64,000 nt of DNA from an uncultured Gammaproteobacteria bacterium. Lineage in GTDB: Bacteria > Patescibacteriota > Patescibacteriia > UBA9934. The stretch is from NCBI GenBank assembly GCA_964552565.1, contig CAZKGL010000001.1:499061-563060 (forward strand), read 5' to 3'. The position numbers were made by a program, and so were the translations under genes. The notes beneath the pieces were generated by a model, which had not been told where the DNA came from, searched no databases, and worked only from the letters and a program-made list of their open reading frames with translations. Below are positions 1,806-63,551 of the stretch, piece by piece (the stretch's first letter is position 1; every line of letters starts with the position of its first letter).

Positions 1806-3335
1806 ATGCGCTACGATGGCGGCGATATGTCGAGTGGAATGACGCGGGTCCCCCCGCACAATCTTGAAGCTGAGGAGTCGCTGCTCGGCGCAGTGCTTAT
1901 TGACCAGGAGACGCTGTTGAAAATCGGCGACCTGGTGAAGCCGGAGGATTTTTACAAGGACTCGCACCGCATCATCTTTGAAACGATGCTCGAACTTGCC
2001 GAACGCCACGACCCCATCGACATCCTGACCGTCGGCAACCGCTTGGAAGAAAAAAGCATCCTGAAGCAGGTCGGCGGGCGCACCGCGCTCGTCGAGCTGA
2101 CGAACACCGTGACGACGGCGGCGCACGTCGCGCACTACGCGGAGATCATCACGAAGAAAGCGCTCCTGCGGCGGCTGCTGCGCGCCGCGAGCGACATTAC
2201 CGAACTCGGCTACGACGAGACGCAGGACGCCGACCTCCTCATCGACGAGGCAGAGCAGAAGCTCTTTAACGTGTCGAGCAACGTCCATAAGACGAGTTTT
2301 GTCCCGCTGCGCTCGGTGCTGACGCAGGCGTTTGACCGGATCGACGAGCTGCACCGCGAGAAAGGCAAGCTGCGCGGCGTGCCGACCGGGTTCACCGGCC
2401 TCGACAACCTGCTGGCAGGCCTCCAGAAATCCGACCTCGTCATCCTCGCCGCCCGCCCGTCGGTCGGTAAAACGTCGTTCGCGCTCGACATCATGCGCTC
2501 GGTCGCGCTCCGCACCAAACAGCCGGTCGGGTTCTTCTCGCTCGAAATGAGCAAGGAACAGCTCGTCGACCGCCTCATTTGCGCCGAGGCCGGCGTCGAC
2601 CTCTGGAAGCTGCGCAACGGCCGCCTGTCCGACCACTCGGACGATTTTCCCCGCATCGGGGATGCGCTCGGCAAGCTCTCGGAGGCGCCGATTTACATTG
2701 ACGACTCGCCAATGGCGAACATTATGACCGTGCGCACGAAAGCGCGCCGCCTCCAGTCCGAACACGGCCTCTCGCTCATCGTCGTCGACTACTTGCAGCT
2801 CATGGAAGCGCGCAAGCAGACGGACAACCGCGTGCAAGAAGTCGCGGAGATTTCGCGCGGCTTGAAGCAGATCGCCCGCGAGCTCCAGGTGCCGGTCCTC
2901 GCCCTCGCGCAGCTCTCGCGTGCGGTAGAAAATGAAAAGCCGGCGATCCCGAAGCTTGCCCACCTCCGCGATTCGGGAAGCATCGAGCAGGACGCCGACG
3001 TCGTCATGTTCCTCTACCGCAAGGCCGCGGACCGCAACTACCAGCCCGACGAACTGACGCCCGAAGAAAAGAACGCGGCCGAAGTCCACGTCGCCAAGCA
3101 CCGCAACGGCCCGACGGGGATGGTAAAACTGTTCTGGGATGCGGCGCGCACGTCGTTCAAGAACCTCGACAAGGCGTATGGCGAGATGCCGGTGCCCATC
3201 GCCGCTGGCGGCGCCAAGCCTCCCGCGGATGCCACTGCCACCCTCCCCAGCCACCCTGCCACTCCGCCGGCAAACCCGAATGTCGGCCTGCCACCCGGCA
3301 TGCCGCCGAGGGGGTTTACACCGCCGCCACGGTAA
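1806..3335 (+). CDS. dnaB: replicative DNA helicase DnaB with Pro-rich C-terminal tail
   Basis: N-terminal LEAEESLLGAVL motif, Walker A ARPSVGKTSFAL, Walker B LIVVDYLQLM, RecA-like core; alternative starts 1827/1839. Confidence 0.9.
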   Translation: MRYDGGDMSSGMTRVPPHNLEAEESLLGAVLIDQETLLKIGDLVKPEDFYKDSHRIIFETMLELAERHDPIDILTVGNRLEEKSILKQVGGRTALVELTNTVTTAAHVAHYAEIITKKALLRRLLRAASDITELGYDETQDADLLIDEAEQKLFNVSSNVHKTSFVPLRSVLTQAFDRIDELHREKGKLRGVPTGFTGLDNLLAGLQKSDLVILAARPSVGKTSFALDIMRSVALRTKQPVGFFSLEMSKEQLVDRLICAEAGVDLWKLRNGRLSDHSDDFPRIGDALGKLSEAPIYIDDSPMANIMTVRTKARRLQSEHGLSLIVVDYLQLMEARKQTDNRVQEVAEISRGLKQIARELQVPVLALAQLSRAVENEKPAIPKLAHLRDSGSIEQDADVVMFLYRKAADRNYQPDELTPEEKNAAEVHVAKHRNGPTGMVKLFWDAARTSFKNLDKAYGEMPVPIAAGGAKPPADATATLPSHPATPPANPNVGLPPGMPPRGFTPPPR

Positions 3336-3413
3336 ATCCACACGCCGGATCCTGCTCGGCGTCACCCGGCGTTAGGTGACAAGCGCGCTTTTATTGGGTA
3401 ATATTGTCGCACT

Positions 3414-6836: not shown

Positions 6837-6875
6837 GCTCGCGACGGCGGGGCGCGGTGGCCCCGCCTATTGTCG

Positions 6876-7022
6876 GCCGGGTGACGCCGAAGGGACGAGC
6901 GGTGCGTCGTTGGGCGGAGACGTTTGCGCCCAGCCGCAGGCGACGCGTCGCCGCTACGGCGTAGCGCAACTGCGGAGCACAACGACGTACCCGAGTCCCG
7001 ACCGAAGCGGCAGGACCCGGCC
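6876..7022. repeat. family-A intergenic repeat, long copy (CCGGGTGACGCCGA...GGCGGCAGGACCCGGCC)
   Basis: shares 5' and 3' ~17-nt termini (imperfect inverted repeats) with copies at 15156-15246 and 41335-41428; lies between convergent genes. Confidence 0.6.
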
Positions 7023-7029
7023 GTGTGGG

Positions 7030-7548
7030 TTAGTACAAAAACTGGAACGTCGCGAGCATGATACCGATCTCCTCGTCGGCGGCATCGTCGGTCACAATTG
7101 CAAACACGCGATCGTTGTACGACACGTAATACTCTTCGCGGCCGCTCAGGTGCGCGTATTTTATTGTCGGATACGCGGCAAACAAAAACTCGCTTTTCGT
7201 CACGCTGCCATCGCCGTCGAAGGTGGCGTCAATCGTCCCCAGCGCACGCGACTCTTCGCGCACGGTCAACTGCGTCTCTCCGTCGTCATCCACGATGGCA
7301 ACGCCGTCGTCGAGCGCCGCGACCGACCACGCGGCCGGATAGCCCATGCTCCACACGTCCGCGCCGTATGTCACCCACCCTTCATCAGGGAGTAACGCCG
7401 AGCGGAAGACGCGGTCGGACGCGGTTTCGCTCCTGGCGCGGGCGCCCTGGTCGCGACGGAGCACGACGAGCAGTACCGTAACGAACACGACGGCAACCAC
7501 AAGCGTCCCGATGGTCAGCCAGGACGGCAATTGGCGCAGATGGCGCAT
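7030..7548 (-). CDS. hypothetical membrane-anchored protein
   Basis: single N-terminal TM (LVVAVVFVTVLLVVL) then soluble domain. Confidence 0.4.
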   Translation of the reverse strand: MRHLRQLPSWLTIGTLVVAVVFVTVLLVVLRRDQGARARSETASDRVFRSALLPDEGWVTYGADVWSMGYPAAWSVAALDDGVAIVDDDGETQLTVREESRALGTIDATFDGDGSVTKSEFLFAAYPTIKYAHLSGREEYYVSYNDRVFAIVTDDAADEEIGIMLATFQFLY

Positions 7549-15015: not shown

Positions 15016-16965
15016 ATGGAGAAACTCCCGCTCCGCGCCTTTCTCTTCGTCGGCCTTGTCGCAATCCTTGGCAGCCTCTTGTATTACGCGCTTCCCGTCA
15101 CGCGGTTCGGGATCGCTGTGGTCATTGCGCTCGCAGCCGTCGGCGCGTGGATGACGCCGGGTGACGCCGAGGGAGGCCCCCGATGGGCGCGCAGGGAGCG
15201 ACAGCGACTCGAGCACCCAGCGGGGTCCGAGGCGGCAGGACCCGGCGTACGCCTTGGCCGGGCTTCATACGCCCTCGCCGTCATCGTCGTCCTCGCGCTC
15301 GCCGCATGGTGGAGCGCCATCACCCCGCATGCGATCACCGAGGCGGTGCGCTCCCCGTGGGGCATCGTGCCGCCGTTCGCCGTGGCAGCGCTTGGCGTCG
15401 CATTCTTTGCATTGCTTGTGCTCCTGACGAACCCGCCGACGCGGCTTGCCATCACGCTCTGCGCGGCGACGCTGTTCTCCGCGCTCGCGATGGCCGCGGT
15501 CGTGTACCCGCTTGGCCTTGGCTTCGACCCGTTCCTCCACCGCGCCACCATGGCACACATCGCGGAGTTTGGCACGATCACCCCCAAACCCTTGTACTAC
15601 ATCGGCGAGTACGCGCTTGCGCTTGCGCCGCACCTCCTTCTTGGCGTCCCGCTTGCGCTCATTGACCGCCTGCTCCTTCCCCTCATGGCCGCGGTCATGC
15701 TGACAGGGAGCGCGGTCATGGGCCTTGCGCCACTTGCGCACCGGAAGAGCGCCATTGCGGTCGCCGCACTGCTGTTCCTCCCGCTTGGCGCATTCATCAC
15801 GACGACGCCGCAAGGCATTGCGTACGTCCTCGCCGCGAGCGCGGTGTTACTCTCGTTTGCAGCCATCAATCGTGTCGTCCCGTTCGTCCTCGCCGTCGCC
15901 GCGCTCCTCACACATCCGTTCGCCGGCATCCCGGTCGTCCTGTACGTCGTCGCGTCCGCGGTCGTCGCCCGCGCGGCGTCCCCCGCGCTCCGCACTGCTG
16001 CGCTCGTGGCAACCCTTATCGCGGGCGTCGTCGCCATCCCGGCGGTCTTCGCGCTGCAAGCGGCGCGCAGCGGCCTGTCGCTCTCCTTCCATCCTGGAAA
16101 CCTCTTCGACATCTCACGCTGGCAAGAACTGGCGCTCGGCGGATTCTTCGCGAACCACTTCTCGTTCGCATACGACGCCCTCTACCTCGCGCTCGACAAC
16201 CTGCTGTGGTTCACGATCGCCGCCGCGGTCGTCGGCTCCCTCGCGCTTCGCCATGACGCGCAGCGCCGCGCCAACGCCGCGCTGCCCGCCATCCTCGCGG
16301 TCGCGATGGCGAGCAACTTCATCGCGCTCTCCATCCTGTTCGACTTCGACTTCCTCATTTCCTACGAACGCAGCGACTATGCGCTCCGCTCGCTCATGAT
16401 GACGCACATCTTCCTCCTGCCGCTTGCGGGCGCCGGCATCGCGTCGGTTGCACACCGCTTGCGGGAAAAGCCGCTCGTGCTGCGCGGCGCGTTCCTTGCC
16501 GCGCTCGCCGTCATCGGCATGGGCAACGTCTACGGCGCATATCCGCGCCACGACAACTATGCGCGGAGCGCGGGGTTCAATGTGAGCAAGGCGGATTTTG
16601 ACGCGGTAGACGCTATCGACGACAAAGCGGAAGGCGAGGACTATATCGTGCTTTCCAACCAGGCCACTGCCGCAGCCGCGGTCGAGGCATACGGCTTCAA
16701 GAAGTACTACCACGGCGACATCTTTTACTACCCCATCCCGACGGGCGGCGTCATGTACCAGCACTTCCTGACCATGGTCGACGAAGGCCCGACGCGCGAG
16801 ACGATGGACGCGGCGATGGACGTCGCGGGCGTCAACCTCGGGTTCTTTGCGGTGAGCGACTACTGGTGGCAGTCCGAACAGCTTATTGAAAACGCGAAAC
16901 GCATCGCGGACGACTGGTTCTCCGTCGGCGACGGGAGCGTGACCGTCTTCATCTTCCGGCAGTAA
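15016..16965 (+). CDS. large polytopic membrane protein (>=14 TM) with in-frame family-A repeat insertion
   Basis: 649-aa ORF; residues ~46-78 (TPGDAEGGPRWARRERQRLEHPAGSEAAGPGVRLG) are the translation of repeat copy B; real start could lie downstream of the repeat. Confidence 0.5.
   Translation: MEKLPLRAFLFVGLVAILGSLLYYALPVTRFGIAVVIALAAVGAWMTPGDAEGGPRWARRERQRLEHPAGSEAAGPGVRLGRASYALAVIVVLALAAWWSAITPHAITEAVRSPWGIVPPFAVAALGVAFFALLVLLTNPPTRLAITLCAATLFSALAMAAVVYPLGLGFDPFLHRATMAHIAEFGTITPKPLYYIGEYALALAPHLLLGVPLALIDRLLLPLMAAVMLTGSAVMGLAPLAHRKSAIAVAALLFLPLGAFITTTPQGIAYVLAASAVLLSFAAINRVVPFVLAVAALLTHPFAGIPVVLYVVASAVVARAASPALRTAALVATLIAGVVAIPAVFALQAARSGLSLSFHPGNLFDISRWQELALGGFFANHFSFAYDALYLALDNLLWFTIAAAVVGSLALRHDAQRRANAALPAILAVAMASNFIALSILFDFDFLISYERSDYALRSLMMTHIFLLPLAGAGIASVAHRLREKPLVLRGAFLAALAVIGMGNVYGAYPRHDNYARSAGFNVSKADFDAVDAIDDKAEGEDYIVLSNQATAAAAVEAYGFKKYYHGDIFYYPIPTGGVMYQHFLTMVDEGPTRETMDAAMDVAGVNLGFFAVSDYWWQSEQLIENAKRIADDWFSVGDGSVTVFIFRQ
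15156..15246. repeat. family-A repeat, copy B (in frame inside ORF 15016-16965)
   Basis: CCGGGTGACGCCGAGGGAGGCCCCC...GAGCACCCAGCGGGGTCCGAGGCGGCAGGACCCGGC; ~80% identical to copy at 41335-41428. Confidence 0.65.
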
Positions 16966-16966
16966 T

Positions 16967-17650
16967 ATGCGCCCGACGCGTGCATTCTGGTTCGGTATCG
17001 TCCCCGCACTGTTTCTCCAAGGCATCGGCGCGTATGCGTACTTTGTCCTGCTTGCTGACTCGCCCGCCGCGAGCCCGCTGTACGGTGCGGTGAAAATCCT
17101 CCTCGTCATCTGGCCGATTGTTTGGCTGAAGCTCGGCGCGCCGCTCCCGCGCTTCCGTCTTCCGTTCGACCGCCGCTCGATCGCGTACGGCCTCACTGCC
17201 GGACTCACGATGGCCGGCGCCATCGGTCTCTCCGCATGGTTCCAGTTTGATAATCTCGTACCGTTTGGGAATGCATTTTCAACAAAGGCCGACGACCTCT
17301 TTCCGCTGGCGTACTTTGTTCCTGTCGCGGTCGTCTTCAGCCTCGGCCACTCGTTATTCGAAGAGTATTTCTGGCGTTGGTTCGTGTTTGGAGGGCTTCG
17401 GACGCGAATGCCGGATGTCGCCGCGGCGTTCATCGGCAGCCTCGGGTTTACCATCCACCACATCGTCATTCTCAGCCAATTCTTCCCCGCCCCGCTCACC
17501 CTCCTGACGAGCGCGGGCGTATGTGTGGGCGGCCTCATCTGGTGTCATGCCTATCGCGCGACTGCAAGCCTGAGCGCCGGCTGGATAAGCCACGCACTCG
17601 TCGATGCGGCGATTTTCGGGGTCGGTTACGCAGTAATTTTTGCCAAATAG
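16967..17650 (+). CDS. CPBP (CAAX) family intramembrane metalloprotease
   Basis: EExxxR motif (FEEYFWRWF) and FxxxH (FTIHHIV) in TM helices. Confidence 0.7.
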   Translation: MRPTRAFWFGIVPALFLQGIGAYAYFVLLADSPAASPLYGAVKILLVIWPIVWLKLGAPLPRFRLPFDRRSIAYGLTAGLTMAGAIGLSAWFQFDNLVPFGNAFSTKADDLFPLAYFVPVAVVFSLGHSLFEEYFWRWFVFGGLRTRMPDVAAAFIGSLGFTIHHIVILSQFFPAPLTLLTSAGVCVGGLIWCHAYRATASLSAGWISHALVDAAIFGVGYAVIFAK

Positions 17651-17655
17651 TATTT

Positions 17656-17683
17656 GGAAGCTGAGCTTCGAAGCTCAGCTTCC
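17656..17683. repeat. REP element, 28-nt perfect palindrome GGAAGCTGAGCTTCGAAGCTCAGCTTCC (5' flank of RAYT)
   Basis: self-complementary; near-identical copies at 18442 and 49442. Confidence 0.8.
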
Positions 17684-17787
17684 AAGTTGTGGATACTTTT
17701 CTGAGATCGCTTGACGGGGGTCTTTGCATTTGAAAAACTGAAACTATCACTCCCCTCGCTCAAGGCGCGGGGCGTTTTATTTCGCGC

Positions 17788-18555
17788 GTGACTGAGAATA
17801 TGCGAAATGAACAGTTCACCATCGGCGGGTATTACCATATTTATAACCGCGGTGTAGACAAGAGGGATGTTTTTTGCGATCCAGATGATTATGAACGATT
17901 CGTTCGCTCGTTCATCTATCTCAATACGATGCCAACGCATGCATTCCCGCCAATCGCGCAGCTTACAACTCGACCTAACAATCAAGGCCACATCCATGTT
18001 CGCATCATGGCCTACGCGCTCATGCCAAACCATTTTCACTTCCTTATCGAACAAATAGGGGAGTTCGGGGTGACTGAATTCATGCATCGGCTTGGAACGA
18101 GTTACACAAAATATTTTAATCGCCGCTACGACAGATCTGGAAGGTTGTTTGAAAGTGAGTACAAAGTGGTTCCGATACAATCAGATGCGCATCTCTACCA
18201 CATCTCGCGATACATCCATCTGAACCCCCTTTCACTCTCCCCCGCCTCGCACAAACTAAAACGCTGTGCTGAAGACTGGAAACGGGCCGAGGAATTTCTT
18301 CTGCGGTATCCCTGGTCGAGCTACCGCAGCTATGTCGATCGGTGCACCGATGAAGTCAATCCTGACATGATATGGGACATGTTCTGTGGATCGACTGACT
18401 ACCGAGCATACATGCGCGAATGGTATTTATCTCCACAGTTCGGAAGCTCAGCTTCGAAGCTGAGCTTCCGACCGGGCATGGGGCAATTTTTGCCAAATAA
18501 CCGCTACAACTTGCAAAGAAACGACTTTTCTGCCTATCCTATGGCACCGTCCTAG
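17788..18555 (+). CDS. REP-associated tyrosine transposase (RAYT; IS200/IS605 TnpA-like Y1 HuH)
   Basis: HuH motif MPNHFHFLIE, catalytic Tyr motif SRYIHLNP, REP palindromes flanking; ORF reads through REP2 to 18555. Confidence 0.75.
   Translation: MTENMRNEQFTIGGYYHIYNRGVDKRDVFCDPDDYERFVRSFIYLNTMPTHAFPPIAQLTTRPNNQGHIHVRIMAYALMPNHFHFLIEQIGEFGVTEFMHRLGTSYTKYFNRRYDRSGRLFESEYKVVPIQSDAHLYHISRYIHLNPLSLSPASHKLKRCAEDWKRAEEFLLRYPWSSYRSYVDRCTDEVNPDMIWDMFCGSTDYRAYMREWYLSPQFGSSASKLSFRPGMGQFLPNNRYNLQRNDFSAYPMAPS
18442..18469. repeat. REP element GGAAGCTCAGCTTCGAAGCTGAGCTTCC (3' side of RAYT, inside its ORF)
   Basis: perfect palindrome, 2-nt variant of REP1 (central G/C swap). Confidence 0.8.
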
Positions 18556-29047: not shown

Positions 29048-29267
29048 ACAGTCCCCCTTTTCTGAGCCCGAAGCGGACTCATGGCCACCTTGTCCCCGCC
29101 GGGCCAAGTTGTCGAGGCAGACTCCAAAAACATCGCTTGGTTGAGCGATATTCCACGTATGGCCTGTGCATACCTGGGCTTTTCATTTTCTGGCGAACCT
29201 TTTGCGCAGACGACCCGGCACTACGAAGGGTCCGACCCCTTCCGGTGGCCGGGTCCTTCTATTATTT

Positions 29268-29327
29268 GCAACATAACCATCCAGAGGAGCGTAAGCGACG
29301 AAGGATCCCTCGCTTCACTCGGGATGG
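29268..29327. repeat. degenerate short copy of family-B palindromic element
   Basis: AACCATCCAGAGGAGCG...GGATCCCTCGCTTCACTCGGGATGG; directly downstream of TspO stop. Confidence 0.45.
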
Positions 29328-30899: not shown

Positions 30900-31124
30900 T
30901 TATTGATCTAATTGGATCTCCCACCTGTCCTCCTGAGAAAGTTTATATTCGTCCATGATCTCGTTGAGCTTTCGGGCGATCTCGTGACGGCGCATCAGTT
31001 TTTCTGGGTCAATATGGTTGAACACTATAGGCACACCGGGAACCATGTCACGGGCAGACATAGCTGTTTCACGTTTCAGTGTCTTCCATTCTTGGAGAAT
31101 TTGATCAAATTGCTGCTGATCCAT
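30900..31124 (-). CDS. hypothetical 74-aa protein downstream of res
   Basis: 10 nt after res stop; low-G+C codon usage like the island. Confidence 0.4.
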   Translation of the reverse strand: MDQQQFDQILQEWKTLKRETAMSARDMVPGVPIVFNHIDPEKLMRRHEIARKLNEIMDEYKLSQEDRWEIQLDQ

Positions 31125-31133
31125 ATTGGCATG

Positions 31134-33812
31134 CTAGTCATGGTTTACAAAGGCCCTAATACACTCAGCGAAAGTCTTTGGACGAAACTTTTCCCACTCC
31201 TCCTGCTTCACGTATAGCATTTTGTATTCTGTTCCCGCCTTTAGATTGTTTACATCGTCACACCACTGCCGAAGCCGTGCGATCTTCCGCGAATCGTCGA
31301 GATCCTCCCTGCCCTTCGTCTCGATAATATAGACTGTGTCATCTGCCAGCTTCACGAAAAAGTCCGGATAATAATAGGCGATGCTCCCGTCCGCATTCTT
31401 ATAATCGATACGGAATTGGACTTCGTAATAGTTTTTTGCGAATGAAACCACATCCTCACAATCATCGAGAAATTTTCCGAATTCGAGTTCAAGATGGCTA
31501 TCGCCAACAATCTTGTTGAAGACGCTCTTCTTTGGAGTGATGTATTCGTTCTTATCACTAACAAACGGCCGGGCTTGGCTGATCTTGATGTAGTTACGTA
31601 CTTCCGCCTCTCCTTTATCAATAACGGTAAGATCATTGATTGCCTTTTTGAAGGTCTCCTCAATGGTCCTACGCGCTTCAATTTCCGATAGGTTACGGAC
31701 TAGGTTAGAGTCCTCAAGATCGACCGTTTGACCAAAGAGACGGTCGCACACAAAATCTCGTACTAATGGGAACAGCTGATCAAAGCCACTGACCATGCGA
31801 AGTTCACGCATGATGCCCTGCGTGTAGAATCCGATGGCATTTCGCCAGTCGGGCATTACACCTTCTGGAAGCTCAACGATGTGATCAGTTTCCCCGGTTA
31901 CAATTTTCTTGAAGACTATTTCGCGTTGCTCTTGCGCGGTGAATTGCTTGTATTCTACCGGCCTAAACTCTAGATGAGTAACATCAATGTCAGAGATGTT
32001 TTTATATTCTCGAAAAATACGTGGAGACAGGACAGGAAGTTGAATATCGAGCTTCTCAATATCCTTCTTAAGATTTTCATGATCGATCTCAACGATGACC
32101 GGCGCAACGGCGCTTGAATCCCTGTCCATTCGCCGCGTCTGCAGTTCCACACCCTCTGCCTTAATCGACTCAACGAAATCCATGAACGCGGGGGTGCCGA
32201 TAACGCTGACGTATTCCTCAACTCCTCTACCGAAGTACATGAGCCGCAAACCGCGACCAAGCGTTTGCTCAGGAAGGATGTTGCTTTTTGACGCGAACGC
32301 GCGAAGGCCAACGATCGTGGTCACGTTTCGTACGTCCCAGCCCTCTTTCAACATGAGAACCGAAACGACAGCAAGATACGGGCTCTCAAAGCTATCTAGT
32401 TCATTCGATTCCCGACGGAGTTTATCGAGCTCCTCTTTATCCTTATGCTGAATGGTCTCCTTAATTTCGCCAGAGCGATTTGTGTGAATCGTTAATATCT
32501 TCCCTGCGAGTTCTGGGAAGTTTTGCTCGAGGTGCTGAGCGACCGCGTCACAGTTCGTGGTGTCATCAGTCATGACGAAGAGTACCGCTTTTTTTCCAGT
32601 CTTCAGGTGCTGCTCGTATGCTTTACGCCATTCGATAACACCGAGGTGGAGATATTCGCGGTAGCGCTCAATAAAGTTACTACTCTCAACCTCGTTGAGC
32701 TTCGCACGACTCGCCTGGTCCGGAAGAACCGGATGTTTTACGACGTTTTGATGGATCGCCTCAACAAGAGGATAATCGCAGACGGTTTGCACGAAGATCT
32801 CGCCACGCTCATTCTTCGGCGTTGCGGTAACGTCGATCTGCAATGACAACGCACGACCTTTCATCTTCAGGCGGTTTGAGATGTCTTCAATTGATTTAAA
32901 CCATGCGAGCTTCTCGTCGTGAATATGATGCGCCTCATCGTTGAGAACCATGAGCTCATCTACCTCACGCACAATGTCACCGAGATCAACGCCCGAGTTG
33001 GTCGTTTTCGTAACAGGACGGTCTCCCAAAAAATAATCAGTCGTGTTTTCATCCTCAAAAGTCGCCGCCTGGACGTCGCGATCGTACACACGATGAATGT
33101 TCGTCAGGAAGATATTTCCACTCGGAGAGACACCGCTCACTTCGTCCTGCAGGTGCACCGTAACCTGAAAATCATCCTGCCAGTTTTGCCCCTCGTAGCC
33201 ATTATCAGGAAGAATGGGATCGCCAAAGAAAATCTTGCATCCCTCAAAGTCTCCTTTGATGCGATCCAAAACGATGATGTTGGGTGCAATCAACAAAAAG
33301 TTCTTCGACATCAACGAATCCGGTTCGTAAATGCGATGGAAGTAACTCCATGCAATAAGCAGGCTCAACACTTTTGTCTTGCCCGCGCCCGTCGCAAGTT
33401 TCAAAACAAAACGCGGCCAGGCTTCCTTAAACATGCTTCCCGACACACGGCCCGAACTGTCGTACCGCAACAGGTCATGTGGAGCCCGTGCGCCGGCGAC
33501 TTCATAAAGGTAAATCGCTGTCTCTACAGCTTCACGCTGAGCAAAGTAATACCTGAATGTCTTTGCAACGCCATCAACCCAATCGACATGATCTTCAAGA
33601 AACCACCAACGCAGGAGCGCACGAGTCGTCGGACTCGCGCCTTTGTAATCGTTATCGCGCCACTCCTTCACCAACTTTCGCACCTCAGGCACGAGCGGCG
33701 GCATGAGTTTCTCCCACTTCGATTCTCGCAACGCCTCATCAGCCGGAAACCATCGGGTTTTCGGATCGAGGATTGCGTAGGGATCTTTTGGGAAACCAGG
33801 ATGGAGGGCCAT
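31134..33812 (-). CDS. res: type III restriction enzyme Res subunit (SF2 helicase + C-terminal PD-(D/E)XK)
   Basis: motif I LATGAGKTKV, motif II LNDEAHH, C-terminal nuclease PDFFV...YIIETKG. Confidence 0.85.
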   Translation of the reverse strand: MALHPGFPKDPYAILDPKTRWFPADEALRESKWEKLMPPLVPEVRKLVKEWRDNDYKGASPTTRALLRWWFLEDHVDWVDGVAKTFRYYFAQREAVETAIYLYEVAGARAPHDLLRYDSSGRVSGSMFKEAWPRFVLKLATGAGKTKVLSLLIAWSYFHRIYEPDSLMSKNFLLIAPNIIVLDRIKGDFEGCKIFFGDPILPDNGYEGQNWQDDFQVTVHLQDEVSGVSPSGNIFLTNIHRVYDRDVQAATFEDENTTDYFLGDRPVTKTTNSGVDLGDIVREVDELMVLNDEAHHIHDEKLAWFKSIEDISNRLKMKGRALSLQIDVTATPKNERGEIFVQTVCDYPLVEAIHQNVVKHPVLPDQASRAKLNEVESSNFIERYREYLHLGVIEWRKAYEQHLKTGKKAVLFVMTDDTTNCDAVAQHLEQNFPELAGKILTIHTNRSGEIKETIQHKDKEELDKLRRESNELDSFESPYLAVVSVLMLKEGWDVRNVTTIVGLRAFASKSNILPEQTLGRGLRLMYFGRGVEEYVSVIGTPAFMDFVESIKAEGVELQTRRMDRDSSAVAPVIVEIDHENLKKDIEKLDIQLPVLSPRIFREYKNISDIDVTHLEFRPVEYKQFTAQEQREIVFKKIVTGETDHIVELPEGVMPDWRNAIGFYTQGIMRELRMVSGFDQLFPLVRDFVCDRLFGQTVDLEDSNLVRNLSEIEARRTIEETFKKAINDLTVIDKGEAEVRNYIKISQARPFVSDKNEYITPKKSVFNKIVGDSHLELEFGKFLDDCEDVVSFAKNYYEVQFRIDYKNADGSIAYYYPDFFVKLADDTVYIIETKGREDLDDSRKIARLRQWCDDVNNLKAGTEYKMLYVKQEEWEKFRPKTFAECIRAFVNHD

Positions 33813-33814
33813 AG

Positions 33815-34108
33815 CTAGATGTCAAGTAATCTTGTCTGGAGATCATAAATTTCATCTTCCAGCTCTCTTCGTAACTCAGTTATTTCTGATGATTGATTGA
33901 TATGCGCAAACATAACGTCTATAGCAGCCAATCCGACAGTAAAGACGAATGCAACAACAACACCAATGATTATTTGCATGCTCAAATTTTTCTGATCTTT
34001 TAACTCTTCTTTTAGCGTAGCGAATTCTATGTAAAAAACCGATTCTGCTATCGCCTGGTCCAGCGGTACAAACCCCTTCAGTTCATCGTCAATAACGTGT
34101 CGTGGCAT
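33815..34108 (-). CDS. small single-TM coiled-coil protein between mod and res
   Basis: 97 aa; TM IIIGVVVAFVFTVGLAAIDVMFA; start overlaps upstream stop, stop 3 nt before res start. Confidence 0.5.
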   Translation of the reverse strand: MPRHVIDDELKGFVPLDQAIAESVFYIEFATLKEELKDQKNLSMQIIIGVVVAFVFTVGLAAIDVMFAHINQSSEITELRRELEDEIYDLQTRLLDI

Positions 34109-34109
34109 A

Positions 34110-34331
34110 TTAAATCTTCAGAAAGCCCTTAATCTCAACCACGCCACCGTGTTCTTCAGCTGCGATATCTAAGTTTTTATATCGATGAAAATCCACACCA
34201 GCGAACGCGACACCTGGACCAAACGTAAAGCCTGGACCAAATTCGATGCCGCTTACCTTGATCCTGAGTTTCGGAGTCAGGCTGCCGTCTGGCAAAATAT
34301 CAAATACCTCTCTGAAGCTGTATCTTTTCAT
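34110..34331 (-). CDS. small Gly-rich 73-aa protein between mod and res
   Basis: tightly coupled (5-nt gap after mod stop); GIEFGPGFTFGPGVAFAGVDF. Confidence 0.45.
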   Translation of the reverse strand: MKRYSFREVFDILPDGSLTPKLRIKVSGIEFGPGFTFGPGVAFAGVDFHRYKNLDIAAEEHGGVVEIKGFLKI

Positions 34332-34336
34332 AGTTC

Positions 34337-36619
34337 CTAGATCATTATCTCAACAACTCTGGTGGTATCGTTCCCAAAAATGTCGATTACTTTCACTGCG
34401 ACCTTACGCCGACCCGGCACGCACTGTACTGCAACTGATGTTAATTCAAGCTCGCGATCTTTACGAGTGCGGAAAGATTGCCATTCGTTTTCGAAAATAT
34501 ACTGGCCAGTCCATTCTTCGTCATAGTCAACCTTTGTCGCCTGCTCGAGTTCTACGGAGCCGTCAAGCATGATTTGTTTTGCCACCACGTCTTCCGCAGT
34601 GCGTACGATCTCTTTCTTGCTTTCGTAATTGAAGTCGACAGCCCAATAATCGATCCAGTCAGTCCATTTACCCGTCATTATTTCACGTGTGATAATTTCT
34701 GTTTGCTTATCTTTAGTCAACTTAATGAGATTGCCATCCTGCAAAACGATCTTCGATCCCCCACCCTTGATGTTTTCTTCGATTTCCGCGAGATCGTCTT
34801 GGTTGTAAAAAACCTTAAAATTCGCAAGCTCTATAGCGAGCTTATTCTTCTTTACAATCGGATTCACCTCAACGAACGCGAGATCGTAGAATTTCACCTG
34901 TCCGCGCTCAACGGCGCGCTTGTCGAAAACTTCGTTCGGAATCGTTTTAAACTGAAGGTCGATGCCATTGTTTTTTGCGACATCGGCATCCATGCCCATT
35001 TCCCAGCCAAAGCCGAGGACGTCCGCTTTCGTTATACCTTTTTCACGACATTCTGCGATTACCGACTCAACGAGCGAATGCGAGACTGGAAACTCGATCG
35101 GACCAATAGCAACAAGCCGATCGCGCTTCTTTCCAACAAAATTTCTGAAACCGTTTACCGGCTCAGCCTTATATGCTGAGAGAATAAGTGACCTAAAGTC
35201 ATCTTCTTTTTTACGGCGTAGCTGCTCCTTTTCTTCCGCTCGCAAGTCACCATCGACGTTTACAAATTGCTTGCGTTCGTATTTACCAAGGTTGAGAATT
35301 TCAAACGCACGATACGACTGACCCTCTTTCTTCAACTGTCGTTGCACTGCAATCATTCGCTTACGAGATGCGTGAATGCCGAAGCGTCCAAGGTCACTGC
35401 CAATCCATTTACGGTCCAACTTTTCAGAAACAGCTAAAGTCGTCCCTGAGCCGATGAAAAAATCAGCGACAATGTCTCCGTTGTTCGTTGAGGCTTGGAT
35501 AATTCGTTCAAGAAGAGCACTGGGCTTCTGAGTCGGATAGCCAGTATCTTCAACTCCGCGCACCATCGGAATGTCACTCCATAAATTTTGAACGATCATT
35601 CCCGGCCACTCATCCAAGAATTCCTTACGATAAATCAAAGAACCATTTTCTGGAAAATATAGCCTACCCTCCTCATCCCACTTACACATTTTTTCCTTAG
35701 TGACTGCCCATCCGTTTTTTGGTGGCTTCCTTCCTTTGTATTCATACCGTAGCGTCGGTCGTGGTGCCGGATTCGCCATGTTATTAATTCTGTATCGCCG
35801 ACCGCCCTCGTCAATTTTATTAAAAATATCTAACAGCTCATCGGTATTATCACTTTTGTTAAATTGTTCATTGAAAATAAACTGCTCACTTTTGGAATAG
35901 AAAAGTATGGTGTCGGTCTGAGTGCGAAAACTTCCTGCGATGCTAGTTCCACCGGTTCGTCGTTTCCAAATTATCTCCGATTGGAAATTTTCAGAACCGA
36001 ATATTTCATCAAGGATCAACCTCATGTAGGAATTCACTCGCCAATCACAGTGAACATAAATCGAGCCGTTATCGGCAAGTAAATCGTGCATGAGCCTTAA
36101 TCGCTCGTAAATCATCGAAATAAAGCTATCCGCTCCTCTTCCCCACGTATCACGATAGGCTACCTCCTCGATGATGCTCGGTTTTTTTGTAAACTCCTCC
36201 CCACCAATCTCAATGTTCATCGAAAAATCTGCACCGACATCGAATGGTGGATCGATGTAGATCAGCTTAATGCCACCTTGGGCTTCGATTTCCTTCCGCA
36301 AAGGGCCATTCTTGAGTGCAGAGAGAATCAGCTTATTGTCTCCCCAGATAAGTTTATTCGTCCAGCCCTTAGCCTGCCGACCAGAAAGATCAAAAAGATT
36401 CTGCTGCAACTTCACTTCTCGCTCACTGCGGGGCTCGTCGATATGTTCGATTGACTGAAACGGGAGCACGACGTTCATAACCTCGTCGGTCTTGCCGTTC
36501 CAAACCAACTCAACCTGGCGATTATCGCCAAACAGTAAAAACCGATATTTGTCCGGCAAGGGTTTCCCTTGCTCGAGCATCCTCGTGATATCGCGAATTT
36601 CGTTCGGTTGAAGCTGCAT
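34337..36619 (-). CDS. mod: type III R-M Mod subunit (N6-adenine DNA methyltransferase, 760 aa)
   Basis: DPPF motif IV (LIYIDPPFDVG), AdoMet motif I region, large C-terminal extension. Confidence 0.85.
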   Translation of the reverse strand: MQLQPNEIRDITRMLEQGKPLPDKYRFLLFGDNRQVELVWNGKTDEVMNVVLPFQSIEHIDEPRSEREVKLQQNLFDLSGRQAKGWTNKLIWGDNKLILSALKNGPLRKEIEAQGGIKLIYIDPPFDVGADFSMNIEIGGEEFTKKPSIIEEVAYRDTWGRGADSFISMIYERLRLMHDLLADNGSIYVHCDWRVNSYMRLILDEIFGSENFQSEIIWKRRTGGTSIAGSFRTQTDTILFYSKSEQFIFNEQFNKSDNTDELLDIFNKIDEGGRRYRINNMANPAPRPTLRYEYKGRKPPKNGWAVTKEKMCKWDEEGRLYFPENGSLIYRKEFLDEWPGMIVQNLWSDIPMVRGVEDTGYPTQKPSALLERIIQASTNNGDIVADFFIGSGTTLAVSEKLDRKWIGSDLGRFGIHASRKRMIAVQRQLKKEGQSYRAFEILNLGKYERKQFVNVDGDLRAEEKEQLRRKKEDDFRSLILSAYKAEPVNGFRNFVGKKRDRLVAIGPIEFPVSHSLVESVIAECREKGITKADVLGFGWEMGMDADVAKNNGIDLQFKTIPNEVFDKRAVERGQVKFYDLAFVEVNPIVKKNKLAIELANFKVFYNQDDLAEIEENIKGGGSKIVLQDGNLIKLTKDKQTEIITREIMTGKWTDWIDYWAVDFNYESKKEIVRTAEDVVAKQIMLDGSVELEQATKVDYDEEWTGQYIFENEWQSFRTRKDRELELTSVAVQCVPGRRKVAVKVIDIFGNDTTRVVEIMI

Positions 36620-36623
36620 ATAC

Positions 36624-37358
36624 TTATTTCAGGAGATCCCAGGCAACCAAGTAAGAGGTGACGTCGTGTTCCATATTCCCAAGGTACACCTTCCCATCGC
36701 GAATTTTAATGTTTACGCGATAGCGTGTGCCGTTGCTGACAGGAAGTATAGCGCGTTCACGCACCTTTTGCTCAATGACGTGATATGGAAGAACTACGAA
36801 CTTCGTGGCCTCTTCTCCATGCAAAACAAAGACGTAATACACGTTCCCCGAGCCGTGACGATCAAAAGAAACCTTGCGGATATCGAAGACAAAGATGTTA
36901 AACCGATTGATGTTCGACGTCTTCACCTGGATGCCGAACAGCTTGTTGTCCTTGGTCGCGATGATATCTAAGCCAGTATCGACGCTCATGATGCTGGCGT
37001 TATAGCCAAGAAACAAAAGCTCGGCACAAACCGCATGCTCACCAGCCTTACCCGTACAGCCGCTGTCGATCGCAAGTTTTTCAACAATTGCTTTCTCTGC
37101 TGGCGTTTCTGGCGTCTCTTCCACCTTTTCGACCGTCTGGTTGCCACTCAAGTCATACACGCCGGGACCAACACGCTTAAACGCTGAATGCTTTTTCTTT
37201 GCATCAGTGGAAAGCCGCGCACTCATTGTCATTTCTGGCGTCGCTCCGTTCGTCTCCAAGAGGCCCCACTCGAGCGCAAGCTCGGTAATGCGCGCATAGT
37301 GAAGTGGTTCCCCCGCGCGCTTTAGCACTTCGGCTGCTGCCTGCTTAAAGGAGTTCAT
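36624..37358 (-). CDS. HARE-HTH domain fused to PD-(D/E)XK-like nuclease domain
   Basis: N-terminal FKQAAAEVLKRAGEPLHYARITELALEWGL (HARE-HTH), C-terminal E...D(TGLDII)...IQVK; start at MNSFKQ. Confidence 0.55.
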   Translation of the reverse strand: MNSFKQAAAEVLKRAGEPLHYARITELALEWGLLETNGATPEMTMSARLSTDAKKKHSAFKRVGPGVYDLSGNQTVEKVEETPETPAEKAIVEKLAIDSGCTGKAGEHAVCAELLFLGYNASIMSVDTGLDIIATKDNKLFGIQVKTSNINRFNIFVFDIRKVSFDRHGSGNVYYVFVLHGEEATKFVVLPYHVIEQKVRERAILPVSNGTRYRVNIKIRDGKVYLGNMEHDVTSYLVAWDLLK

Positions 37359-37360
37359 AT

Positions 37361-37786
37361 CTACGAGTTGAAGGGCAAGCCCGCACCGTCCTCGAGTTTC
37401 CCATCCCACCCCTCCGCCCTCTTTTGCACGTCCGCAAAACACACTTCGTCGTGCTCACCTTCTTTTTTGTCACACTCCTTTGCATGGTCGCGTTCGGCCA
37501 AGCGTTCGGCAAGGAGCGGCCAGAATTCGTCCTCGGCAACCGCGTGGAGCGCCGCGTCTGCGTCGTCGAAGAACGCGTCGGTCCAATGGTCCTCGTCCTG
37601 CGTATCCGGGGGAAACGTCATGCCGAAGTCTTCCGCGCGATCCATGAGTTGTTCCCACAGCTCCGCAAGCTCTTCGTCGAGCTTGTCGCCGCGCAGCCGC
37701 GCGACGTGTTCGTCAAGCACGATCGCCGCCGCAACTGCGCGCGTGAGAGACAAATAGTGTTTTGTGTGTAGTGTCAAATCAGCCAT
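37361..37786 (-). CDS. highly acidic 141-aa protein (candidate DNA-mimic/regulator)
   Basis: ~27% Asp+Glu, start MADLTLHTKHY; stop abuts start of HARE-HTH nuclease gene; higher G+C than neighbours. Confidence 0.45.
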   Translation of the reverse strand: MADLTLHTKHYLSLTRAVAAAIVLDEHVARLRGDKLDEELAELWEQLMDRAEDFGMTFPPDTQDEDHWTDAFFDDADAALHAVAEDEFWPLLAERLAERDHAKECDKKEGEHDEVCFADVQKRAEGWDGKLEDGAGLPFNS

Positions 37787-40973: not shown

Positions 40974-41325
40974 TCAATGCTCACTCCACAAGAGAAGAAG
41001 GCGCGACGCAAAGCCGCCCTTCTTTTCTTTTTGGGCTTGGCAGATTTCCAAAAACTCTTCGCGCGTCACGCCAAGCGCAAGCAACAGCCCGTCGATGACG
41101 GCTTCGACATCGGCAAGTTCGCGAAGCGCGTCCTCGCGGCCGTCCGCAGTGGCGGCCTCCGCGGCTTCTTCCTGCAGCTTCTGCCGGAGCTGCGCGACAA
41201 ACTGGGCGTCGTCGACAATCACGTCGGTCGCAAACGTGACGCCCTTCGCGCGCATCACCTCCGGCACCTTGTCGCGGATGAGCTTGTTATATACCACCCT
41301 TCCTGCCGGATATTGTTTGTCCATA
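40974..41325 (-). CDS. MazG/HisE-like NTP pyrophosphohydrolase
   Basis: all-alpha EAAEAA...ELADVEAVIDGL motif; start at internal Met MDKQYPAG. Confidence 0.55.
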
Positions 41326-41334
41326 CATGAGGGG

Positions 41335-41428
41335 CCGGGTGACGCCGAGCAGGTCCCCTGCTTGGGCGCGCAGACGAGTCCGACGAGTCGAGCACCCAAC
41401 AGGGTGCGAAGGCGGCAGGACCCGGCCG
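41335..41428. repeat. family-A repeat, copy A (fills cls-mazG intergenic gap)
   Basis: GCCGGGTGACGCCGAGCAGGTCCCCTGCTTGGGCGCGCAG...GAGCACCCAACAGGGTGCGAAGGCGGCAGGACCCGGCC. Confidence 0.65.
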
Positions 41429-41429
41429 G

Positions 41430-42707
41430 TTAGAATTGTTCGGCAAACAATGCCGCAAACGCCTCTTTGCATCGCCACCACCACGAGCGCTTCTTCCAGG
41501 ATGTGAGCGTTACTTCCTTGGCGCGGCGCAGGTCGCGGGCGAACGCGTCACCTAACCGCTTCGCCAACCCGGTGTCAAGCATGGCAATGACGTTCTCCTC
41601 GTTGAGCTCTTTGCTGCGCACATCGATGTTCGCGCTGCCGACGACCGACCACGCGCCGTCGACGACGACAAATTTGCTGTGCACCATGGTCGGCTGGAAC
41701 TCGTAAATGCGGACGCCGTCCTTCAGCATCTCCTCGTAGTAATACCGCCCGGCCCACAACACCGGCGGGACGTCGATGTGTTCGTTCGGCACGATGACGC
41801 GCACCTCGACCCCTTCGCGCGCTTTTGCACGGAGCGCGGCGCGGATGTGGTGGTCCGGGACGAAGTACGGGTTTTCGATGCTGATGCGTTTCGTCGCGCC
41901 CATAAACGACAGCCAGAACAGCGTGCGGATGGGATGGATATCGTCGGTCGGCGCGGAGGCGACGCTCAAAAACGGCACGCTCCCCTTCTCCGCCCGCCGC
42001 GGGTAATAGGCGTCGCCCACAAGGATCTCCCCGGTCGCCGAGGTCCACATTTGCACGAACGCCGCTTGGAGCCGCAGCGCCATGACGCCGGTCGTCTGCA
42101 CCATCATGTCGCGCCAATGCTCCGGGTTTTCCGCATTCCCCGACCACTCGTCGCCGATCGACACGCCGCCCGTGTATGCCACCGTTCCGTCAATGACGAT
42201 GGAGCGCCGGTGGTTGCGGCGGTGGTAGCGCGAGAGTTTGCCGAACTCGAACTTGCGGAACCATGCGACGTGGCCGCCCGCGGCCTCAAGCGTGATGAAC
42301 TTGTCTTCGGGCGCAAGGATGCCGCCCATGCTGTCCAAGAAAACGCGGACCTCCACGCCCTCATGCGCCTTCGCGGTCAAGATCTCGAGCAATTGGTCCG
42401 ACAGCTTCCCGTCCTTCCAAATAAACGTCATGACGTGGATGTGGTGCGTCGCCGCGCGCATCGCGGCGAACATGGACGCGAAAATTTCATTGCCGTTGTT
42501 CAGCACGTCGACCGGCGACCCCATGTCGACCGCCGTCCCCGTGAGCGCGGACAGCGCCGCGAGGAACTGCGGCGACCCTACGACGACGTCGTCCGTGCAC
42601 GTCAATTCATTAGGCCGCTTGCCCCACGACGCAAACAGGGTGACCAGCACATAAGCCAGTACCCACGCCCCGACGATAATTGCCAACACGACCCACCACG
42701 CGCCCAT
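41430..42707 (-). CDS. cls: cardiolipin synthase (two PLD/HKD domains)
   Basis: N-terminal TMs; two HxK(x4)D motifs (HVMTFIWKDGK..., HSKFVVVDGAWSVVGSANID). Confidence 0.8.
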   Translation of the reverse strand: MGAWWVVLAIIVGAWVLAYVLVTLFASWGKRPNELTCTDDVVVGSPQFLAALSALTGTAVDMGSPVDVLNNGNEIFASMFAAMRAATHHIHVMTFIWKDGKLSDQLLEILTAKAHEGVEVRVFLDSMGGILAPEDKFITLEAAGGHVAWFRKFEFGKLSRYHRRNHRRSIVIDGTVAYTGGVSIGDEWSGNAENPEHWRDMMVQTTGVMALRLQAAFVQMWTSATGEILVGDAYYPRRAEKGSVPFLSVASAPTDDIHPIRTLFWLSFMGATKRISIENPYFVPDHHIRAALRAKAREGVEVRVIVPNEHIDVPPVLWAGRYYYEEMLKDGVRIYEFQPTMVHSKFVVVDGAWSVVGSANIDVRSKELNEENVIAMLDTGLAKRLGDAFARDLRRAKEVTLTSWKKRSWWWRCKEAFAALFAEQF

Positions 42708-49319: not shown

Positions 49320-49441
49320 GTCATCCCCCCCAGGCAGGCACACGTCCCGCCACCTCATCCATGGCATACCGGAGGGGAATGTCAAGGAATCCTGCAAAAT
49401 GCGATGAAAACAAAAAAATACGCACGCCATCCCGAGCACTC

Positions 49442-49469
49442 GGAAGCTCAGCTTCGAAGCTGAGCTTCC
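49442..49469. repeat. orphan REP element GGAAGCTCAGCTTCGAAGCTGAGCTTCC
   Basis: identical to REP2; intergenic between DUF2231 gene stop and lipoprotein start. Confidence 0.8.
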
Positions 49470-49510
49470 GATGTCGTTTGCTGCGTTCGTGGGTGGGGTA
49501 CACCGACCGA

Positions 49511-61835: not shown

Positions 61836-61911
61836 CCATCCCGAGGCGGCTGCCGAGGGACCTAGAGAAACGCCGATGAGCGTTCTAGGTCCCTCCTGGC
61901 GTCGGGATGGT
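61836..61911. repeat. family-B ~75-nt palindromic element (CCATCCCGAGGCGG..GAGGGACCTAGAG..CTCTAGGTCCCTC..CGTCGGGATGG)
   Basis: occupies exactly the gap between convergent stop codons; second copy at 63456. Confidence 0.7.
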
Positions 61912-63455: not shown

Positions 63456-63529
63456 CCATCCCGAGGCGGATGCCGAGGGACCCAGAAAACGCTGATGGGC
63501 GTTCGAGGTCCCTCCTCACGTCGGGATGG
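63456..63529. repeat. family-B palindromic element, copy 2
   Basis: ~88% identical to 61836-61911; again between convergent gene ends. Confidence 0.7.
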
Positions 63530-63551
63530 TTCTTCATTTTCTCCTCAAGTG

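Follow-up and report, generated by a model that had tools for sequence, protein, structure and literature searches.

A previously uncatalogued hairpin repeat of about 90 bases shared by several bacterial phyla

The 64-kb stretch of bacterial DNA analysed here (the window) has a GC content of 61% and contains four dispersed copies, A to D, of a short imperfect palindrome that we refer to as Family-A. Homologues of the gene that harbours copy B are named Candidatus Uhrbacteria or Patescibacteria, and the host genome is a high-GC, Uhrbacteria-like member of the Patescibacteria. Copy A (41334..41427, plus strand) represents the canonical form of 94 nt and fills most of the 108-nt gap that separates the cls stop codon (41430-41432) from a PRA-PH/MazG-like gene starting at 41321; since both genes lie on the minus strand, the copy is antisense to its two neighbours. 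Its first bases, GCCGGGT (41334-41340), pair with ACCCGGC (41420-41426), and its characteristic motifs are a 5' GGGTGACGCC (41337-41346), GAGCAC (41390-41395) and CAGG (41416-41419). Copy B (15156..15246, plus strand) is likewise canonical, with 91 nt, and lies in sense and in frame within ORF 15016-16965, which codes for a membrane protein of 649 aa; translated, the copy reads GDAEGGPRWARRERQRLEHPAGSEAAGPG and forms part of the loop joining TM1 to TM2. Copy C (6876..7022, plus strand) is a form of 147 nt located between two convergent genes, a PEGA-domain gene on the plus strand (ending at 6836) and a 172-aa gene on the minus strand (ending at 7030). It possesses the usual termini and GAGCAC, together with an enlarged and branched apical region, and its covariance-model score is low (14.2 bits) because the long insert is penalised.

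The smallest copy, D (3344..3370, minus strand), is a minimal form of 27 nt, GCCGGGTGACGCCGAGCAGGATCCGGC, with a weak covariance-model match at 3294-3370 (E 0.03), and is located in the gap that separates the dnaB stop codon (3335) from the start of ybaB (3414), in antisense orientation to these two genes. It consists of the two termini only, the interior being absent. As these termini meet at the pentamer GCAGG, of which an A-like copy contains two directly repeated occurrences (GCCGA-GCAGG-TCCCC ... GGCG-GCAGG-ACCCGGCC), copy D is best regarded as an internal deletion derivative; a short form resembling it is present in L114/L125, and truncated and minimal forms occur in other loci. In copies A, C and D one end of the element lies 3-8 nt from a stop codon.

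The start of the element, the 15-mer GCCGGGTGACGCCGA, is found without mismatch in the window at 41334(+), 15156(+), 6876(+) and 3356-3370(-). When up to two mismatches are allowed, five matches are obtained in the window against 0.65 expected, a number that none of 100 shuffled sequences reached. The 3' word GGCGGCAGGACCCGGCC is exact in copy A and deviates by one base in copies B and C, while the core GGGCGCGCAG...GAGCACCCA(A/G)C is common to A and B and partial in C. Copies A and B are only about 75% alike within this one genome, so that recent bursts are not evident in it. The initial annotation of this DNA was correct in describing copies A, B and C with shared start and end words, and in placing them in the gap between cls and the mazG-like gene, within a gene (B) and between convergent genes (C, of 147 nt). 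However, it counted three copies, missing D, gave 41335-41428 as the extent of copy A, which starts and ends one base earlier, and ascribed the conserved core to all copies, where C shares it only in part. A supposed fragment near position 29215 is a different hairpin, whose stem halves stand in the opposite order and which neither covariance model scores. This terminator-like hairpin (29205-29262; ACCCGGC...GAAGGG..CCCTTC...GCCGGGT, then a T-rich run) shares 11 nt (AGGACCCGGCC, minus strand) with the 3' end of Family-A, with the stem halves swapped.

Several other features of the window deserve mention. A second family of hairpin repeats, with ends CCATCC.GAG ... CTC.GGATGG, is represented at 29270-29325 of the window and at 1058-1133 of the related contig L150, where it occupies the gap in which the window has copy C. 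Possibly related is a 44-nt repeat with the end CGGGATGGT, whose two copies (61868-61911 and 63487-63530) are 89% identical. Finally, a low-GC island (31100-37450; GC 0.47 compared with 0.61 overall) encodes a type III restriction-modification system with a ResIII helicase/endonuclease (31137-33812), an N6/N4 DNA methylase (34340-36619) and a HARE-HTH/PD-(D/E)XK protein (36627-37442), and was probably acquired horizontally.

Single-sequence folds agree that the Family-A unit is one imperfect hairpin of ~80-125 nt with an asymmetric conserved core. The basal stem P1 pairs NNCGGGU with ACCCGNN, and inside it an internal loop places 5' G-A opposite 3' G-CAGG. The second stem, P2, consists of CGCCG plus 2-4 variable pairs (CGCCG.../...CGGCG) and is succeeded by a 5' bulge, GGG(G)C, which leads to the third stem, P3, in which (G)CCCC-N4-6 pairs with N4-6-GGGG(C). 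Above P3 there follow a C.A mismatch, a two-pair GC/GC step, a loop with 5' G-N-A and 3' G-A, and a variable apical hairpin of 10-60 nt. The two arms therefore differ: GA, the GGG(G)C bulge and a small palindrome, GGGGCGCCCC, which is confined to this arm, characterise the 5' side, and GCAGG the 3' side.

The fold was examined with a covariance model (R1) built from six metagenomic sequences of 89 nt. As no window sequence had entered the model, its recovery of copy A (37.4 bits, E 7.6e-6) and copy B (31 bits, E 2e-4), with nothing else significant in the window, constitutes an independent test. In an alignment of 103 copies among the matches listed, which R1 itself had aligned so that fit to the model biases the pairing counts, 95.4% of the cells hold standard pairs, compared with 76% in column shuffles and ~40% with slid partners. 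Double changes occur in 23 of the 30 pairs, and P1 covaries even in a plain MAFFT alignment (second pair: GC 41, AU 6, CG 4, UA 3), which provides the compensatory base changes that the initial annotation had proposed to look for. Covariation also extends to a non-Watson-Crick contact, in that A9 of GUGAC and the G before CAGG combine as A.G, G.A or G-C. G-U and U-G pairs together (69) outnumber A-C and C-A (24), and the strand as written (plus) folds better than its complement (z from -3.2 in copy A to -4.7 in copy C, against -2.2 to -2.5). Both observations indicate that the structure belongs to the strand 5'-GGGUGAC...CAGGACCC-3'. Conservation is highest in the interior and lowest at the ends, and the loops are conserved while the stems covary.

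Several structured elements were compared with this fold and rejected. Hammerhead and twister cores gave no match by reading. A K-turn is contradicted by a G at position 2b and by A9, which covaries with the L1 position instead, and a SECIS element by the UGA, which is out of frame in the coding copies. Resemblances to 5S rRNA, SRP RNA and Tn3 terminal repeats found no model support.

Outside the window, metagenome contigs were scanned with the pattern CGGGTGACGCCG-N(30-60)-GAGCA-N(12-40)-CAGGACCCG. At least 120 Family-A loci were recovered, on contigs ranging from 40% to 74% GC, and among the matches listed the element is GC-rich even in the hosts with 40% GC. Together with copies in relatives of the source genome, these loci supply the further copies that the initial annotation had proposed to search for. 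The relatives share the asymmetric hairpin GGGUG(A/G)CGC ... GAGCA ... CAGGACCC. The search patterns partly imposed conserved termini on the copies that they found; GGGTG(A/G)CGC and CAGGACCC are, however, also kept by the copies that were found by covariance models only (L048b, L053b, L118b, L113b, L068b, L089, L151 and both copies of L154). In a set of species-representative genomes, which did not include the source genome, a scan for both exact termini yielded 28 matches, 25 of them chance matches in actinobacteria and three true ones from two metagenome-assembled genomes (MAGs). No element was found in viral contigs with the pattern used for the metagenomes.

The hosts of Family-A include Patescibacteria (the window, L151 and L154) and a member of Candidatus Omnitrophota (L047), and one MAG that carries it was labelled deltaproteobacterial by its submitters. 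The hosts of a sub-family of 106 nt are here called Acidobacteriota-like because one of its contigs, L099, carries an ADOP duplicated permease above the curated cut-off. At gathering thresholds, Rfam 15 reported three tRNAs only for the whole window and no match to Family-A, in agreement with the earlier view that the family lies outside the common repeat classes; permissive searches with copy A (E up to 10) and eight metagenomic loci (E up to 1) returned chance matches only. Similarly, literature searches with the conserved words retrieved only primers and aptamers, and keyword searches no description of the family. Family-A thus belongs to a previously uncatalogued family of ~90-base hairpins in several bacterial phyla, and its structured core of ~60 nt, conserved across phyla, sets it apart from all described families, although it may be identical to a TIR repeat family that PMC3733652 presents only as a drawing.

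While the interior of the element is conserved, its margins are not. No direct repeat that could represent a target-site duplication is found at the ends of any of the four window copies, and beyond the pairing of GCCGGGT with ACCCGGC each copy has its own extra pairs: G-C in A, AC/GT in B and D, and CG/CG in C. Among the matches listed, the stem is extended by at least 7 positions beyond the core (with at most two mismatches) in 43 of 121 non-redundant copies, compared with ~6.5% in mismatched-flank controls. The extensions seen in the L068 and L047 coding copies take the form of inverted repeats of 9-14 nt, of which at least one half each is host coding sequence at conserved residues (basal stems GGTTCGTTATT/AATAACGAACC and, in the second copy, ATTTTTGATTC/GAATCAAAAAT in L068; ATCAAAAAC/GTTTTTGAT in L047). 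The Acidobacteriota-like form has an outer stem, CTTAGAGYGCGTTTCAGAACTCG...CGAGTTCTGAAACGCRCTCTAAG, which enlarges the unit to ~165 nt. In L154 the outer flanks are shared between its two copies (~40 nt on each side), so that there the outer stem is part of the repeated unit. As extensions and outer stems differ by copy and lineage, the interior can be considered the conserved part of Family-A and the periphery lineage- or copy-specific. Directly beside the 165-nt Acidobacteriota-like element, tandem heptamers (GGCTTAA / CCTTAAG-like) were observed in several independent contigs (L037, L132, L133, L135, L140 and L144).

Comparisons with related genomes bear on how the copies came to their places. 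For copy C there is an orthologous empty site: the gap between the PEGA-domain gene and the 172-aa gene measures 193 nt in the window and 24 nt in L151, where it holds a small terminator-like hairpin only, and the genes on either side encode orthologues (46% identity, E 1e-44). A separate GC-rich hairpin in the window (6837-6875; GGCGGGGC-GCGGT-GGCCCCGCC), between the stop codon of the PEGA-domain gene and copy C, has the position of this small bidirectional terminator-like hairpin of L151. Synteny around cls was also tried in search of an empty site for copy A, and the downstream gene differs in the relatives. L151 has its own Family-A copy elsewhere, in the convergent gap between gpsA and htrA, L154 carries its two copies elsewhere, too, and positions are non-orthologous between relatives.

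The copies within genes provide a second line of evidence. In the host protein of copy B, the loop between TM1 and TM2 comprises 38 aa, compared with about 19 aa in close homologues, and the translation of the element (GDAEGG...AAGPG) falls within it. The segment is absent from these homologues, and no copy is found in this gene on the syntenic contigs of the relatives L149, L150 and L151. Another copy (L068:6855) stands in frame inside KsgA/RsmA, where the Pfam RrnaAD match (residues 27-315) spans the insert, and the second copy of L068 provides the C-terminal tail and stop codon of KsgA. A further in-frame copy (L047:5910) occupies a hypervariable linker of an Omnitrophota acetyl-CoA synthetase, at a position where 79 aligned homologues have other sequences or nothing. 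The three coding copies (B, L068 and L047) are all in sense orientation and share one frame, in which GGT GAC GCC is read as G-D-A and GCG GCA GGA CCC as A-A-G-P; the frame GGG TGA contains an invariant stop codon. Frame statistics over all copies are uninformative, because in high-GC DNA every frame is open.

Among the matches listed, the gaps that harbour the element, as judged by a crude gene caller, are convergent in 27 cases, co-directional in 20 and 12 (two classes) and divergent in 11. By the same caller, convergent gaps are over-represented and divergent (promoter) gaps depleted, and there is no strict orientation relative to transcription. No recurring neighbour gene or transposase family was found around 112 element loci among the matches listed, and no conserved promoter or terminator was seen to flank the window and metagenomic copies.

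Taken together, these observations are best accommodated if Family-A is a local population of phylum-spanning, non-autonomous insertional hairpins in the manner of REP/REPIN and RPE elements, a reading to which we assign a probability of roughly one half. Between the two possibilities left by the initial annotation, a MITE/REP-like repeat or a structured RNA, the non-orthologous positions, the empty site and the in-frame insertions favour the former, albeit without the hallmarks of a classical MITE, namely a target-site duplication and a parent IS. The data show that copies land at new sites, mostly in gaps downstream of genes and in a few cases in frame within permissive protein loops. Target-site duplications are lacking, the host sequence next to the element is often repeated in inverted form so as to prolong the basal stem, and copies decay through internal deletion, as in copy D. 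That the bulges are conserved, and that G-U exceeds A-C on one of the strands, suggests that the element is recognised or handled as a folded single strand. Effects at the RNA level, e.g. of a stable hairpin right after the stop codons of host transcripts, would then presumably be a by-product.

In their habits, REP/REPIN-RAYT and TIRYT repeats come close to Family-A. According to PMC3733652, PMC6006769 and PMC3116915, they are short GC-rich imperfect hairpins in many copies, located mostly downstream of genes or in convergent gaps, with no target-site duplication, a strand-specific single-strand structure and now and then a copy within a gene; longer palindromes enclose some of the families, and the window, too, contains a Y1 gene. 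REP-like repeats with these traits (downstream of genes, intragenic copies, embedding in longer palindromes) are reported from at least eight phyla (PMC3733652). By contrast, Family-A lacks a GTAG or CGTC tag at a conserved position, and its P1 flanks are not conserved; GACG, the reverse complement of CGTC, occurs inside the core, partly paired and not at the stem foot. Furthermore, the unit is one asymmetric hairpin and not two inverted copies of one REP, its interior core of ~60 nt is common to several phyla while REPIN families are lineage-specific, and no copy was found to flank a Y1 gene. The RPEs of Rickettsia (reviewed in PMC10969869) are palindromic repeats of ~100-150 bp in a small-genome bacterium, which are also present in intergenic DNA and have inserted in frame into unrelated protein genes, in a single reading frame and at surface or linker sites that tolerate them. 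Such in-frame insertion, translated with the host protein, is seen in three cases for Family-A (B, KsgA of L068 and acetyl-CoA synthetase of L047). The comparison concerns habits and not sequence, since RPEs are restricted to Rickettsia and AT-rich, whereas Family-A is GC-rich and occurs in several phyla; given these differences in base composition and hosts, homology to RPE-1 to RPE-10 is unlikely.

Other repeat classes are more distant. ERIC/IRU, Correia (NEMIS) and bcr1 elements (PMC2229807, PMC3184786) resemble Family-A as imperfect palindromes of ~100-150 nt in transcribed intergenic DNA, in either orientation, with long hairpin folds and size variants due to internal insertion or deletion. 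However, none of them is known from more than a single genus or family, target duplications of TA or greater length, as well as motifs for IHF or promoters, characterise several, and none is known to possess the core GGGUGACGCC...GAGCAC...CAGGACCC. Family-A also lacks the direct repeats and terminal inverted repeats of the QMITEs of Coxiella (PMC10969869). A classical IS-derived MITE differs in the same way, as Family-A shows no target-site duplication, no parent IS and no recurring transposase, and its ends are its least conserved part. By analogy, then, Family-A would work like REP/REPIN and RPE elements, yet it has neither the REP/REPIN tag nor the REP doublet, and no flanking RAYT was seen.

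Among the enzymes that could mobilise such a folded strand in trans, a Y1 (HUH) tyrosine transposase of the RAYT/TIRYT class would be the most plausible, as the Y1 tyrosine transposases of the IS200/IS605 and RAYT/TIRYT groups are the best-documented enzymes that act on such substrates. The window encodes a candidate at a distance of 2.5 kb from copy B: ORF 17788..18555 (plus strand) encodes an IS200-like Y1 (HUH) tyrosine transposase of the RAYT/TIRYT kind with 255 aa, which carries the motifs NHFHFL and YIHLNP and matches Pfam PF01797 (Y1_Tnp, E 8.5e-10) above the cut-off and the NCBIfam model REP_Tyr_transpos below it. The gene is flanked by a perfect palindrome of 32 nt (17654-17685 and 18440-18471), which is distinct from Family-A and has a third copy at 49440-49471. 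The region 17637-18500 is a REPtron-like cassette, and the Y1 gene in it is AT-rich. A 15-nt direct repeat, AATTTTTGCCAAATA (17637 and 18487), flanks the cassette and duplicates the 3' end of a CPBP/Rce1-like gene; since L149 and L150 have a gap of ~65 nt at this place, the cassette is itself an insertion.

In ~0.96 Mb of element-bearing loci, searches with E. coli RayT (phmmer) and the window Y1 protein (jackhmmer) found no Y1 gene other than that of the window, and with E. coli RayT and plasmid RAYT-like probes no Y1 gene was found to adjoin any Family-A copy; similarly, five plasmid RAYT/TIRYT loci held no Family-A copy. The inverted repeats that flank TIRYT genes share GGGG[AT][CG]A[CG], some of them form repeated families, and a TIRYT group is described for Acidobacteria (PMC3733652, PMC6006769). 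The Family-A core (C/G)GGGTGAC resembles this motif and fits 7-8 of its 8 positions. On the Rhodospirillum rubrum plasmid NC_007641.1 (L159, 5900-6700), a TIRYT-like transposase gene is flanked by inverted repeats, AAAAGGGGTCAGACCCC, that fit GGGGWSAS; they look like the foot of Family-A (GGGT...CAGGACCC) minus its interior, a resemblance only. By analogy, a Y1 transposase of the RAYT/TIRYT kind may mobilise Family-A in trans, though the link is weak.

Against a reading as selfish transposon it can be held that an interior more conserved than the ends, and fixed loops between covarying stems, are typical of functional RNA. Alternatively, Family-A could therefore be a functional structured non-coding RNA, acting in cis or in trans, with several copies per genome across phyla and hairpin loops that serve as a protein- or RNA-binding module. 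The invariant loops, the G-U excess and better fold of one strand, the conserved core within a lineage-specific closing stem, the absence from the viral contigs scanned and the GC-richness in hosts of 40% GC would all be expected from such an RNA. What makes this explanation unlikely in our view is the arrangement of the copies: A and D are antisense to both neighbours with no conserved promoter or terminator flanking them, the orientation relative to neighbours is not fixed, some copies stand in frame within coding sequences, positions are non-orthologous between relatives, and internally deleted and truncated copies exist; Rfam, moreover, holds no match.

A different origin of the dispersal is conceivable, in which a selfish palindrome needs no transposase of its own and multiplies during replication through template switching or fold-back priming: the nascent strand would copy a donor hairpin, snap back, copy the flank in inverted form and rejoin its own template. 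Hairpins are known to be created and maintained by template switching (PMC8794818), and this route would account for the basal stems made of host coding sequence (both copies of L068, and L047), for the lack of target-site duplications and, through deletion between 5-nt direct repeats, for copy D. Yet it leaves the spread across phyla unexplained, as well as the asymmetric bulges and loops that are invariant across them and that arm-to-arm correction would erase, and the inverted flank copies could also post-date insertion; we regard it as improbable.

Least probable by far are two further possibilities, namely that the hairpin evolved where it stands, as a terminator of transcription or a stabiliser of mRNA 3' ends, or that it is a recombination site of the integron attC type. 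In their favour, copies A, C and D lie next to stop codons, convergent gaps are enriched and an attC hairpin is similar in outline (extrahelical bases, variable tip). Yet an origin in place is ruled out by the recurrence of the same sequence across phyla, no U-tract follows the element on either strand (the stretches beyond both ends of copies A to D, like those beyond the metagenomic ones, are not T-rich), and P1 (NNCGGGU/ACCCGNN) contains no RYYYAAC/GTTRRRY core sites, nor are there cassette arrays, the copies being dispersed in mixed orientations among housekeeping genes such as dnaB, ybaB, cls and ksgA. Chance similarity is likewise rejected.

The insertional hairpin in the manner of REP/REPIN and RPE elements thus remains our preferred reading, and its implications reach beyond the source genome. 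Palindromic repeats are usually lineage-specific, whereas the Family-A core with its invariant bulges spans ultra-small CPR genomes, Omnitrophota and Acidobacteriota-like soil bacteria while being absent from Rfam, and this conservation across phyla points to a shared, so far undescribed recognition machinery or function. More tentatively, and with rather less confidence than we have in the insertional reading itself, the core might be a hitherto unrecognised, phylum-spanning structured single-strand module, as ssDNA or RNA: either the long-sought substrate that would explain the movement of orphan REP-like elements without a dedicated transposase, or a functional RNA of a new, multi-copy class that tolerates a position within mRNAs and even within coding sequence. 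For annotators, the covariance model allows the masking of a repeat that inflates or disrupts gene calls through C-terminal tails and loop insertions. Family-A further indicates that RPE-style selfish DNA, in frame within genes, is not confined to Rickettsia, and it offers a tractable case for studying how REP-like elements without an adjacent transposase spread.
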